This document shows positions 47,661 through 53,707 of a stretch of DNA of 64,000 bases, piece after piece. The translations under genes were made by a program, and so were the position numbers. Position 1 is the stretch's first letter. Every line of letters begins with the position of its first letter. Under the pieces are notes generated by a model that ran no database searches, had not been told where the DNA came from, and was given only the letters and a program-made list of their open reading frames with translations. The stretch is taken from IMG/VR virus record IMGVR_UViG_2851938318_000001; one strand, written 5' to 3'. Origin of the DNA: a virus. Taxonomy: Duplodnaviria; Heunggongvirae; Uroviricota; Caudoviricetes.

Positions 47661-50600
47661 TCACAGAAGGCCAATTCTCACTCGGAGGACGTTGTTATCG
47701 TCATAAACGTCAATCCGCTGACCATTTATGACCAATCGCCCATTGCCGCCGCTATTACCGTTAATCTCAAGCGTTCCATTTTTGCCGAACCGCCATCCAG
47801 ATCTACCGCTAACAAAATTGGTAGATTGCAGATCGCCTACTTTTGCATTGGTGATTGTGCCATCCTTGATATACGCACCATTCATATAGGCGATACTGTT
47901 TTCGATAACAAATGGCGTGGTGATCTTCCCGTTAACAGAGTTGACCAAACCAAATCTGTCCGCCTGCACCAAAAACTGAGAAAGACCGGTGGTGTCGATA
48001 CCAAGCGCAATACCGGCAACATACTTCTGCCCTCCGCTCGTTGAAGTCTCCATTTTCAACGTCCACGCGGTTGAGACTTTTTTGTTGGTATCAGCAATGG
48101 CTGTTGCCTGCTGTTGAATTGTCGCGGTATTTCCATCCACCTCTGCTTTCAGAGTATCGATTCGCCCACTTAGAGCATTATCTGCCTGCGTTCTCGCTGT
48201 CGTTTCAGTTGTGACCGCCGCAGAAATGTTGGCTGCTGTTTGAGACTCTAAGTTTGTGATTTGAGTCGCCAGTGCCGCATCTTGCTCTGTACGCGTTTTC
48301 GTTTCGGTTGCTACAGCCGCTTTAATATCCTCTTTGTATTGAGAGGTCAGCTTGGTGATCTGAGATGACAACGCCGAGTCAGCATCAGTTCGAGCCTGCG
48401 TTTCAACTGCAACGGCCGCACTAATATCTTTCGCAGTCTGTGCTTTTAAACTTGAAACCTCTTTTGTTAAAGCGGTATCACCATCTGCACGAGCCGTTGT
48501 TTCTCTGGCAAGAGATGCCTCGAGATCATTAGCTTTTGCTGTAAGAGACGTAATCTGAGTGGACAATGCACTATCGGCATCAGTCCTTGCCTTTGTCTCT
48601 ACAGCAACCGCTGCGGCAATGTCAGTTCCGGTCTGCGCCCGCAGGATGTTAATTTCTCGTGAGAGCGCCTCGTCAGCACTTGCTCTAGCCTCCTGCTCCT
48701 GAGTGATGGCGGCGGATATATCACCGTCAACCTTTGCTTGAAGCTGGTTTATTTGTTTGGCTAAGGCAGAGTCCCCGCTTGCTCGAGCCTCCTGCTCACT
48801 ACGTATTGCAGCAGAAATATCATCATCAACCTTTGCCTGAAGTTGGGTGATCTGGCTTGCCAGAGCCGAATCTTCCGTTGCTCGGGCTTCTTGCTCCTCC
48901 TTAATAGCTGCGACGATATCGTTGCTTACTTTCGACTCAAGCTGAGTGATCTGTGTCGTCAGAGCTTCATCGGCAGATGTACGAGCCTCCTGCTCTGTAC
49001 TAATCGCCGCGCTGATATCTCCTTCAAACTTAGATTGCAGCTGAGTGACACGCTTTGCCAACGCTTCATCGCCATCGGCACGAGCGGTGGACTCTTCCAG
49101 AATACTGGCCTTAATGTCTTCGCCAATTTCTACGCGAATTTCCTCAACCTTCGTGGCCATTGCAGACATATCATCAGCAAAGGTTTTCTGTGTTGTTGCG
49201 ATCTTCGCGTTATTGACCATCTGCTTGTGCTGGTCTTCATCTTGACGAAGAGCCAGGTCAATGTTTGTTTTGGCCAACGCCTCAATGTTCGTAGTCAGCT
49301 CTGCACTTGCACGATCGACCTCTGCAACCGTCTTTTTCATTTCTTCAACGGCAGCGGAGCTTTCCTCTACCGTTGACTGCAACACTTCCAGTTGTTTAGC
49401 GTTTGCAGCATCGCCTTCAACACGAGCCTCGCTTTCCTTAGCAATAAGAGCCGCCGCTTCATCTCTTGCAGCCTTTATTGCCTCGACTGTATTAGCGAGA
49501 GCTTTATCGTGTTCAGATACGGCGTTTTCGATTTCAACAATTGCAGCATCAGTAGCATCAATTTTTTCAAACGCTTCATTGACCTTGTCGATCGTTGCCG
49601 AAACCTCACCTTTAAGCTCGGTTTGTGCGTTCTCCAAAGCATCGCTACGCTCGTTGAATTTTATTTCAAAATCCGCGAGGTTATCGCTGAACTGCTTATC
49701 TAATTCAGCTATATCTTCCTTAACGTCGTTTACCGCCCCCTCCAAAGATTCGACGCTCTGGTTGATATGCTCATTTAACTCGTCAACTGCTTCTTGAGAG
49801 GCTTTGCTGTTGATGTCCTCAAGCAGAGCCTGACCAAGCTCGGAAGATGTAATTTTGCCAGTCAGGAACGACAGTACATCGCGAGTTGTCGCCTCTGTAC
49901 CCAAGTTTGAGTTCGGAGGACTTAACATACCTCGCTTGTTCGATGCTCGAACCCAGTAATACCACGTTTCACTATCCCCAAGACCAGCATGTGTAAAGGT
50001 GGTGCTTGCAGACTCTGCGATCAGTTTCGCCGTATCCAGATTGTTGGTCTGGGATGCGTAAACATTAATGTGATCAAGGTCTACCGAATCTGGATTAACC
50101 CAATTCAGTATCACATTACGATAGTCTCCAACGGCCGTTAATGACGTTGGTGCATCCGGCGGTGTCATTGTGCCCAGCACCTGATAAACGGTACTGATAA
50201 TTTCTGTTTTTTTACCGTTGAATGAAACCGCATACAGTTGGAAGTCGTAGCGTCCATTCTCCGCGACATTAACGATTTCGTATTGCTCTTCGGTTACACG
50301 CGCCGATTGCCAGTTCGATACATTGTTTTCATCAGAACGTCGCCAACTGATCCAATACTCTGGAGATTTCCCTTCCCATGTTGCAGTCAGTTTTACTGAC
50401 AGGTTGCCCGGGCTTGAGAGATAAGTCCCTTCAGTGATTTGCAGATTAGATGGCTTGGAGTAAGTTGGGTCCAATACCGTCGTATTCTGCGGGATCAGCG
50501 TTGCACCATTGTCGATTGCCTCATATTTAGACGGATTGTTCTCAACAGCGGTGATGTCAAAGCTACCCGGCGTTTCCCCCTGCGCGATGTTAACGATGCG

Positions 50601-51530
50601 AACGCGCATAGGTTCGAGGTCTGGTTCTGTAATAGTCCAGACGCCGTTCAAAACAGGCGTTTCAGCCGAAGACAGGGCTTTTGAAAACGTAACTTTTGTT
50701 ATATTTTCGCCAGTTTCAAGAACATCGCGTTCAACGATTTTGCCTTCCTGATTCAGTATTCGAATAAAGCAGCCGCCTTTGGCTAACGACACAGGCGCAT
50801 CGAGTGTGACGCTGTTTTTGGTAAACGCCACAATTCGACCTGAGTTACGTTTGCCTGCGCGATATTTGTTCTGAATCAGAACGGTTTCACCAGGCATCAG
50901 AAATGACGCGTCTAAGCCGGCAGTAAATGTAATTACATCCGACTCCATTCTGGAGGTATATAAAAGCCACAAACCAACTCGGTGAGCCTGCCCTCGGCTT
51001 GTACAGCCAAATGCTACGACTTCTGTTTTACGCTCACCATAACGGCGCATTGCGTCCTGATCTTCGACGTACTCGATGTTTTGCTTATAACCGTCCTCCT
51101 TGTTGTTGTAGGTTACGAGCGCAACGGATGGGCGATCTTTACGCGCAGAACCTTTATAGGTAAACAATCCATCTTTGACGTTAGAGTTGGTAAACATCAT
51201 TACCGGATCTGATGGGCTATCCTGCATGATGTTAACCATCCCACCAGCCCAAAACACCATGCCGCGGAATGCTCCGGCAATATCCTGAATTAGCCGGTAT
51301 GCGTCCTGTCGACTGGTGATCTGCGTATTGATTGCAAAGCGTTTCTCTTTGCCACCAAAGCCATCATCGACCTCTTCGTCACAATATCGACCAATCTGGT
51401 ACAACTGGCCAAGGTCAATCATAGATTCCGACACATACTGACCAAGGCCATATCGAGCATTGGTCAGCAAATCAAAGAGAATCCACGCGGGGTTCGAAGA
51501 AGACAACAGCTTAAAAGTGCCATCCCATAC
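47661..51530 (-). pseudogene. Host-specificity/tail-tip protein J-like, C-terminal part (interrupted by IS629 copy 6)
   Basis: NPAWILFDLLTNARYG...AFGCTSRGQAHRVGLWL matches lambda J central region as recalled; reading frame runs to the IS boundary. Confidence 0.75.
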
Positions 51531-51572
51531 TGAACCGCCCCGGGTTTCCTGGAGAGTGTTTTATCTGTGAAC

Positions 51573-52463: not shown

Positions 52464-52786
52464 TTTTTCCAGAGGCGGTCGAACTCCGCCTTCGCAAAAT
52501 AAGCGGAAGCCTGGCGAAGGATATCGTTACTGCGGCGCAGTTCACGATTTTCACGTTCCAGCTCTTTCAGACGCTGACGTTCAGCGCTGGTGAGCCCACC
52601 ATCACCGCCCCCGGTATCCCGCTCATGCTGGCGAACCCAGACACGCAGAGTCTCCGGCGTACAGCCAATCTTTGGGGCAATGGAACAAATTGCCGCCCAC
52701 TGTGAGTCATATTCATCCTGACTTTCCAGAACCATACGAATCGCCCGCTGACGGACTTCGGGGGAAAAACGAGTATTTTTAGTCAT
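52460..52786 (-). CDS. IS629 transposase OrfA
   Basis: Identical 108-aa translation. Confidence 0.85.
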
Positions 52787-52840
52787 CCTGTTTACCTCTT
52801 TCTCAGGGAGTTTAGTCTCCAGGATTTCCGGGGCGGTTCA

Positions 52841-53707
52841 TACCCCAGCGTAAGTGTTACTGGACTCGTTATAGTTTGAAGGTACTCGAATTTTTAGGCC
52901 ACGCACCAGATAAGAGCGAGATGGCATGGTGCTACCGAATTGCTCAGAGTTTACCTTCAATCCAACCAAAACAGAGTTTGGATAGTTCATCGGTGTATCG
53001 ACAATTTCCCCGATTGAATCCACCCATGTATCGTTATAGAGATACTGGCTACTGTTATCATCGGTAATACGGACTACACGAACCTTGTATGCGCGTCCAG
53101 GCTTAGGCAGCTTCAGCTCGTAGCTACGGTAATAAACGCCGGTCTTCTTTGCTGTTAGCTTAATGCCAACGCTTTTTTCACCTTCCGCGACCACATCTAC
53201 AAATGTTGAGTCGCCATTTGCTATCTGGAACTTGTACTCAACAGTCGTACCGTTCGTGTCACCAGTTTTTTTATCTATGCTTCGCAAAGAAGGAAACTTC
53301 ATGATGACACGAACCCGATCAGCTTCATCGTTATCGATTGAAACCGTTACATAATGTGTTTTTTTTAACTGGATATTGACGGATTTAGGCGTTTCAACGA
53401 AATCAAAGCCAGACATTGGAGTCTGGTCTTGTGAACCGTCGCGAAAATCCCATGTGATTCCGCTGAAGTTGGAGGAACCGTCTTCATTTACAATCGGCAG
53501 ATCGTCGATAAAAATAGATCTTGCGCCATTTACTAAGCCGCCAATTACCCCTTCCCCAAGAAGATCGAGGATAGCGGCCATTGCACGAGAATTTACGGTA
53601 TCGTCGGCTTCAACCGGTGTACGGCTGGAGCTTTTGCTGCTTTTTTTACCACCCGCACCGGCAATAAACAGCGGTAGCTTTTTCTTCTTGAACTGTTCCA
53701 TGTTCAA
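52841..53707 (-). pseudogene. Host-specificity/tail-tip protein J-like, N-terminal part
   Basis: LGEGVIGGLVNGARSIFIDD...ITWDFRDGSQDQTP...PNSVLVGLKVNSEQFGS...LVRGLKIRVPSNYN matches lambda J N-terminus; ends at the IS boundary. Confidence 0.75.

Follow-up and report, generated by a model that had tools for sequence, protein, structure and literature searches.

The 64,000-nt window analysed here (IMG/VR virus record IMGVR_UViG_2851938318_000001, Caudoviricetes; all positions refer to this whole stretch) carries a gene of the lambda-J type, whose intact product would be a trimeric tail-tip hub with a central tail fibre, and this gene (J) is split in two by an insertion sequence (IS) of the IS629/IS1203 type. 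We consider it very likely that the locus as a whole is a J pseudogene made by IS629 in an SSU5-like phage-plasmid of Escherichia coli, a sibling of the plasmid pRM9131-1. The IS, the 3-bp duplication of its target, the reading frame that is restored upon its removal, the homology to lambda J that continues across the insertion site and the uninterrupted genes of the relatives are all observed directly. Taken together, these features are not a chance pattern, and they amount to an ordinary form of prophage decay, the knockout of a tail gene by IS629 in a phage-plasmid that is decaying.

The 5' part of J ends with ...NTYAGV and is followed in frame by the first three bases of the IS, TGA, which serve as a stop codon, so that the 5' fragment terminates exactly at the IS. 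In silico removal of the IS together with one copy of the duplicated TAC yielded an open reading frame (ORF) of 4734 nt with a single terminal stop, which encodes 1575 aa from ATG 53701, the start annotated in relatives, or 1577 aa from TTG 53707, where the mechanically called ORF of the 5' fragment begins. The restored junction reads ...NTYAGV/WDGTFKLL... (V287/W288). A simple insertion flanked by TAC, with halves that join in frame into a continuous ORF of roughly 1570 aa, had been proposed in an earlier note made from the window alone, and this proposal is borne out by the excision. The figures of that note are correct with one exception, namely the 1281 aa assigned to the C-terminal part, which is the length of a mechanical ORF from the internal TTG 51506; the interval 47661–51530 encodes 1289 aa, with the frame resuming as V-WDGTFKLL past the IS and the stop at 47661. 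When the restored protein was searched by tblastn against the window and against the complete sibling plasmid (117 kb), only the two fragments were detected, and hence no continuous J elsewhere, which the note had named as a finding that would speak against the disruption.

The identity of the gene was confirmed by profile and pairwise searches and by comparison with proteins of solved structure. In Pfam, the 5' piece matches FNIII-A_GpJ (PF24801, E-value 5.4e-31) and the 3' piece matches Phage-tail_3 (PF13550, E-value 1.2e-33), fn3 and Phage_Tail_Tip (PF09327, E-value 1.1e-41), and the PHROG 31 profile ('central tail fiber J') is covered seamlessly, with positions 250–520 matched by the 5' piece and 520–1519 by the 3' piece. 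The blastp alignment of the restored protein with lambda J (aa 18–859 with lambda 2–835, 32% identity over 876 columns, E-value 6e-116) crosses the insertion site unbroken, and a second block pairs aa 1420–1508 with lambda 841–931; taken fragment by fragment, the 5' piece corresponds to lambda 2–266 and the 3' piece to lambda 267–835 and 841–931. Among solved structures, the F2-pyocin tail fibre was the best-scoring match (E-value 8.8e-155), lambda gpJ was found with an E-value of 1.7e-124 (8iyk_J), and the putative tail fibre protein 9l9p was likewise matched. The earlier statement that both halves resemble lambda J thus agrees with blastp, Pfam, PHROG 31 and 8iyk_J alike. The insertion point V287/W288 corresponds to lambda I266/W267 and lies within the hub, inside the conserved string G(V/I)WDGTFK.

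The restored protein has the layout of the lambda J family, with FN3 domains, then a helical shaft and then the tail tip fibre domain (PF09327), and the gene takes its place in the tail operon after homologues of M, L, K and I. With lambda gpJ (8IYK/8K35/8XCG) it shares the hub region (HDII-insertion with FNIII-A, HDII–HDIV), a pair of FN3 domains and the beginning of the central straight fibre, as well as the gene order M-L-K-I-J. It differs from lambda in having a 560-aa helical repeat segment instead of a short alpha-helical shaft, in being followed by a separate fibre gene of 1341 aa, in being broken by the IS, and in the absence of the LamB-binding C-terminal domain (the alignment ends at residue 931 of the 1132 of lambda J, and the last 67 aa are unrelated). 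The LamB domain, however, sets the specificity of lambda and not membership of the J family. The broken gene is thus best regarded as a pseudogene of the lambda J/TipJ family, since it lacks a single continuous frame.

The inserted element is a typical IS629/IS1203, with a length of about 1310 bp, two overlapping ORFs, a -1 programmed frameshift and a 3-bp target-site duplication. Its ends in J read TGAACCGCCCCGG.../...CCGGGGCGGTTCA; the terminal inverted repeats begin with TGAACCGCCCCGG and match at 13/13 terminal bases and at 29/40 overall. It is 98–98.6% identical to copies annotated as IS1203 family in O111 and O157 genomes, and the same copy in the sibling record carries the PGAP label 'IS3-like element IS1203 family transposase, programmed frameshift'. 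IS629, of which IS1203 is an isoform, generates target duplications of 3–4 bp, and 62% of the IS629 copies in O157:H7 reside within prophages (PMC3271280); J is therefore a typical class of target. The insertion shares with those in prophages of enterohaemorrhagic E. coli the length of 1310 bp, the IS3 family, the 3-bp duplication, the presence of multiple identical copies and the preference for prophages, and differs only in that the target belongs to a phage-plasmid and not to an integrated prophage.

The copy in J is one of six IS629 copies in the window, all 100% identical to each other (1102–2411, 2662–3971, 7621–8930, 17623–18932, 39580–40889 and 51531–52840). Four of them are flanked by matching duplications (GTG, AAG, ATT and TAC), and the copies at 7621 and 17623 are inverted with respect to each other and have swapped duplications, CTAC and ACT, which shows an IS-mediated inversion of the segment 8931–17622, with breakpoints at an insertion in codon 3 of dnaE and at an insertion in a recA-like gene. 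The element thus exemplifies a burst of IS629 in cattle-associated E. coli that erodes phage functions while the plasmid survives.

Comparative searches revealed what the gene looks like without the IS. Of 5426 complete E. coli genomes, 228 have J, which is plasmid-borne in every case and never chromosomal, and 161 possess a near full-length version. Almost every sampled copy is one piece of 4729–4734 bp; intact relatives have an uninterrupted gene of 4734 bp with about 95–99% identity, i.e. of exactly the length of the restored ORF (4734 nt when counted from the upstream TTG, 1575 aa). The intact J of pU_B2_3 is 98.9% identical to J of the window, and that of Cyrano (pLF82, OV696614, CYRAN_20), the closest named phage, is 99.1% identical to J of pU_B2_3. 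Cyrano and some 160 SSU5-like plasmids of E. coli share with the window the same J gene, its length, its neighbours and its repeats, and differ in that their J is uninterrupted; for Cyrano, DNase-protected genomes, induction by ciprofloxacin and siphovirus particles have been reported, so that virions are documented in that case (PMC9928086). More distant copies of J occur in Klebsiella, Enterobacter, Salmonella phage SSU5 and Yersinia pestis plasmids. In two plasmids, NZ_CP081792 and NZ_CP081707, the J copy is 102 bp shorter, possibly due to a changed number of repeats.

These searches also bear on the idea that the two halves are natively separate genes, or act as a functional two-piece protein with which tails are made. 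There is a structural precedent for such an arrangement, as the hub of lambda and of RcGTA is spread over gpL, gpI and gpJ, while T5 has one polypeptide (PMC10721106), and such divided hubs demonstrate that splitting is tolerated at some points. However, every sampled relative has a single ORF, for which reason the natively split J named in the earlier note as a refutation was rejected; the break lies inside a conserved motif and not at a gene boundary, and what separates the halves is a mobile element with its target-site duplication. Nor is there a sign that the 3' piece could be expressed on its own: a scan of 51300–53000, including the IS/J junction, identified no sigma-70-like consensus promoter, and the junction sequence, read by eye, offers no convincing ribosome-binding site or start codon, so that independent expression was discarded as well. 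We regard the two-piece alternative as very improbable.

The pseudogene reading is further strengthened by the plasmid that shares the insertion. The J region (6047 bp) is 100% identical to that of pRM9131-1 (NZ_CP028430.1) from E. coli RM9131, isolated from cattle faeces in California, and a search of 72,556 plasmids and 5426 complete E. coli genomes found the J::IS629 junction nowhere else. RefSeq lists the 5' part of J in pRM9131-1 as a pseudogene ('TipJ family phage tail tip protein, missing C-terminus'), but the 3' fragment continues to be treated there as an ordinary coding sequence. The window was considered as a copy of NZ_CP028430.1 itself, but direct comparison revealed a 1-bp difference and another arrangement of IS copies, and it was assigned the status of a sibling. 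The insertions in J, in dnaE, upstream of parA and near repA are common to both, and the J::IS629 junction is identical. The RM9131 record differs in having an IS in the 5'-3' exonuclease gene, another in an sbcC-like gene, an IS91 in nrdA (all three genes, the exonuclease, the sbcC-like ATPase and nrdA, are pseudogenes there), a 5-kb deletion adjacent to an IS, and an intact gpL. The window, for its part, has an extra IS at 1102–2411, a different inversion and no IS in the 5'-3' exonuclease gene, and retains about 3.6 kb (3972–7620) that are gone from NZ_CP028430.1. No public record with exactly the arrangement of the window was found, and our literature search for strain RM9131 returned no publications. 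The presence of J::IS629 in two diverged versions of the plasmid implies that the insertion predates their divergence and that the element persisted as a plasmid after losing J.

An assembly artefact, i.e. the misplacement of an IS copy into J in a repeat-rich plasmid, would be conceivable given that the 64 kb contain six identical repeats of 1.3 kb and that the window and the RM9131 record are arranged differently elsewhere. It is nevertheless the least probable of the alternatives, with a likelihood that we place close to nil, because a perfect 3-bp duplication flanks the IS, misassembly makes no target-site duplications, and the identical junction is present in two different assemblies or arrangements.

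Judging from gene content and synteny, the window comes from a phage-plasmid of E. coli that is SSU5-like (pSLy3/pLF82-type). It aligns with Cyrano at 94.5–100% identity across nearly its whole length and encodes RepA, ParA and a toxin-antitoxin pair, with parB located in the complete sibling record. The combination of replication and partition genes with a complete siphovirus structural module in a syntenic replicon of about 110 kb, as seen in the sibling record and Cyrano, agrees with the definition of this family and its pSLy3 type (PMC12977533). A plasmid-like lifestyle, for which the broken J had been taken as support, is native to the SSU5-like family (repA, parA/parB) and is no consequence of the break; what the break does support is that this copy is a defective phage-plasmid.

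Lambda J is the essential hub on which the tail tip is assembled, and by analogy we predict that formation of infectious virions has been lost through J::IS629. According to the mechanism that we propose, copy-out-paste-in transposition of IS629/IS1203 would have placed the element at codon 287/288 and turned the single-copy J into a pseudogene. Translation would halt at the IS-borne TGA and leave a 287-aa stub comprising the HDII-insertion and FNIII-A, and neither a promoter nor a start codon is evident for the 3' part. No hub ring could then form to nucleate the tail tip, and induction would yield at best tailless, non-infectious heads; the IS is perhaps also polar on the downstream tail fibre gene. 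With its plasmid functions kept (repA, parA and toxin-antitoxin here, parB in the sibling), the element would persist by vertical inheritance, and J would be one of several lesions left by the IS629 burst, along with the inversion and a frameshifted gpL. The structure of the lambda tail-tip hub supports this role of J, and the site that corresponds in lambda to the insertion point lies past the HDII-insertion/FNIII-A portion of the hub, which touches gpI and gpL (PMC10721106). The earlier note had expected a disrupted J to abolish adsorption. A functional loss is indeed to be expected by comparison with lambda, but the break falls in the N-terminal hub (lambda J 266/267) and not in the receptor-binding end, which suggests failure of tail-tip assembly, beyond a loss of adsorption. 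This copy should consequently be counted as defective when the number of phage-plasmids that spread by infection is estimated, e.g. in surveys of resistance-gene transfer.

Several points weigh against this interpretation. We infer the loss of function from the essential homologous hub of lambda, and it is conceivable that the two fragments of J, made separately, come together all the same. Beyond the 64 kb of the window, the replicon is known through the sibling record and through synteny with Cyrano. Finally, the 1-bp change in the A-run of gpL, counted above among the lesions, could be a sequencing error, as the run is intact in the sibling.

The neatness of the insertion also invites the question of whether J might be switched off reversibly. 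Precise excision of the IS promoted by the IS-excision enhancer (IEE) in a host rich in IS629 would restore J in a small infective sub-fraction, which is compatible with the pseudogene interpretation and adds a function to it; if so, the element would normally be a harmless plasmid, from which rare precise excisions regenerate infective phage. The insertion is simple and its duplication intact, removal of the IS with one TAC restores the frame, and the six copies are identical with apparently intact transposase genes. Furthermore, IEE-promoted simple excision of IS3-family elements has been found to restore lacZ in Shiga toxin-producing E. coli O121:H19 (PMC9397093), and IEE is reported to act on IS629 (PMC9943667). 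On the other hand, the remaining lesions, i.e. the gpL frameshift and the inversion through dnaE and the recA-like gene, would persist after excision, no excision footprint was found in any public relative, and the allele has stayed in place in at least two versions of the plasmid that have diverged. We therefore judge such a switch quite unlikely.

Alternatively, the breakage of J could have been favoured by selection, so that the phage is disarmed and the benefits borne by the plasmid are kept. At least three further independent IS insertions were found in J of relatives: pSCU-306-2 has an IS629-like element (95.7% identical, in the opposite orientation) at about aa 488, the plasmid of strain 3385 has ISEc52 at about aa 1300, and NZ_CP035843.1 has IS100. 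The J::IS629 allele has moreover outlasted later rearrangements. However, chance suffices for several IS hits among hundreds of plasmids in a gene that, with 4.7 of about 110 kb, is the largest of the structural genes, and intact copies dominate, broken ones making up a few percent of the sampled copies. A tail defect also leaves induction and lysis possible, hence a benefit to the host is not evident. Such domestication appears highly unlikely. The coordinates of J, the IS and the neighbouring tail genes are collected in Table 1.

Table 1. Features of the split J locus and its surroundings (positions in the 64,000-nt window; residues of J are numbered in the restored 1575-aa protein)
Feature	Position	Strand	Remarks
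Tail fibre gene downstream of J	43542..47567	-	1341 aa, intact, length as Cyrano CYRAN_21; Gp34_trimer match
J 3' fragment	47661..51527	-	aa 288–1575 and stop codon; remaining hub (Phage-tail_3), FN3 domains, long helical repeat region, tail tip fibre domain
C-terminal tail tip fibre domain (PF09327)	47718..48122	-	
Ten tandem 33-aa repeats	48099..49085	-	aa 1102–1430
560-aa segment with no lambda counterpart	48132..49811	-	aa 860–1419; falls in a gap of the alignment with lambda J
Target-site duplication TAC, copy 2	51528..51530		
IS629/IS1203 (IS3 family)	51531..52840	-	1310 bp; same direction as J
IS orfB	51573–52463	-	296 aa; overlaps orfA at 52460–52463
IS orfA	52460–52786	-	108 aa
Target-site duplication TAC, copy 1	52841..52843		GTA on the gene strand, codon V287
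J 5' fragment	52841..53701	-	287 aa from ATG 53701; HDII-insertion and FNIII-A part of the hub
Upstream tail-tip genes, lambda order	53719..56205	-	M 55870–56205, L 55090–55820, K 54300–55124, I 53719–54312

Apart from the insertion, the C-terminal part of J had attracted attention by about ten tandem 33-aa repeats, described as rich in Ala and Glu and as unusual for J. Their number and length proved correct: ten repeat anchors are spaced by 33 aa (one by 32) over aa 1102–1398, BLOSUM autocorrelation of the restored protein has peaks at lags 33 and 66, and TRF reports a 99-bp period at 48679–48898. The composition does not hold for the clear repeats, which are rich in Ala, Thr, Ser, Gln, Asp and Glu (Ala 21%, Glu 8%); the Ala/Glu-rich stretch (Ala 16.5%, Glu 15%) is a less regular helical segment upstream, aa 860–1101. 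Both lie in or overlap the 560-aa segment that occupies the place of the short alpha-helical shaft of lambda, between FNIII-2 and the central straight fibre (domain order as in PMC11101478), and whose hydrophobic periodicity is 3.67 residues (hendecad). As to the repeats being unusual, this is true relative to lambda J, but the close relatives, which are 98.9% identical across the whole of J, have kept them, as has Cyrano, which forms virions, and repeats of the same type are present in J-like fibres with solved structures (9l9p_S, 9ze4_N and 25vf_A). The C-terminal 45% of J, which bears the repeats, diverges in distant copies of the Klebsiella type.

In every 33-aa unit the motif is present both forward (SxSxxMxxLxS) and reversed (SxLxxMxxSxS), which makes ten of each, and aa 860–1430 contain 34 matches to the motif, compared with 8.9 +/- 2.9 (maximum 21) in 1000 shuffled sequences. 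SxSxxMxxLxS is the motif of the segment of the F7 pyocin central fibre that changes from a coiled coil to a beta-prism, and it has been predicted for many siphophage fibres (PMC12874032). J thus has, at the level of the sequence motif, the arrangement of the F7 type, i.e. repeated SxSxxMxxLxS in a segment prone to form a coiled coil before the C-terminal beta-prism. With the central fibres of F-type pyocins (F2, 25vf; F7, PMC12874032) it shares the hub, an alignable repeat region and the motif, and it differs in length: the fold-switching coiled coil of F7 comprises 163 residues, while here the clear repeats extend over about 330 aa, or about 500 aa together with degenerate ones. The repeats are thus a long version of a known fibre module and no oddity of J.

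This match of the repeat region to a newly described fold-switching motif is the one aspect of the locus that is of use beyond bookkeeping. If the segment does act as a spring, it would be one of 330–500 aa with 10–15 repeats, and the SSU5-like phage-plasmids would provide a natural length variant for testing the mechanism; the repeat region, two to three times longer than that of the F-type pyocin, could be exploited in intact relatives such as Cyrano. The bolder proposal, made up of two separable parts, that J::IS629 is a low-frequency on/off switch in an IS629-rich, IEE-positive host and that the intact J contains an unusually long spring of the F-pyocin type is quite unlikely.

Among the neighbouring tail genes, the gpL homologue has lost one base of an A-run (AA in place of AAA, at about 55443) directly after ...ARFLDAVNFK, which shifts the frame, while the A-run is intact in the otherwise identical pRM9131-1 record; the tail tip has here either another lesion or a sequencing error in the homopolymer. 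The product of the fibre gene downstream of J has a T4 gp34-type trimerisation domain and an extended low-complexity region rich in Ala and Ser. As this gene has the same orientation as J, it may suffer polarity from the IS. Its product has 887 aa in pU_B2_3, compared with 1341 aa here, and such variation in length among relatives marks it as a swapped host-range module.

As regards the other IS629 copies, those at 1102–2411 (GTG) and 2662–3971 (AAG) are simple insertions 250 bp apart, just downstream of repA. The copy at 39580–40889 (ATT) falls some 120 bp upstream of parA, in the intergenic space that separates this gene from a kacAT-like toxin-antitoxin pair, and could affect expression of the partition gene. 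Finally, 1263 bp of the large 'RecA' gene of Cyrano (55257–56519) are absent from the window at about 17445–17447, where the junction has an overlap of 3 bp and is free of any IS; the difference may reflect an intein-free allele or a deletion.

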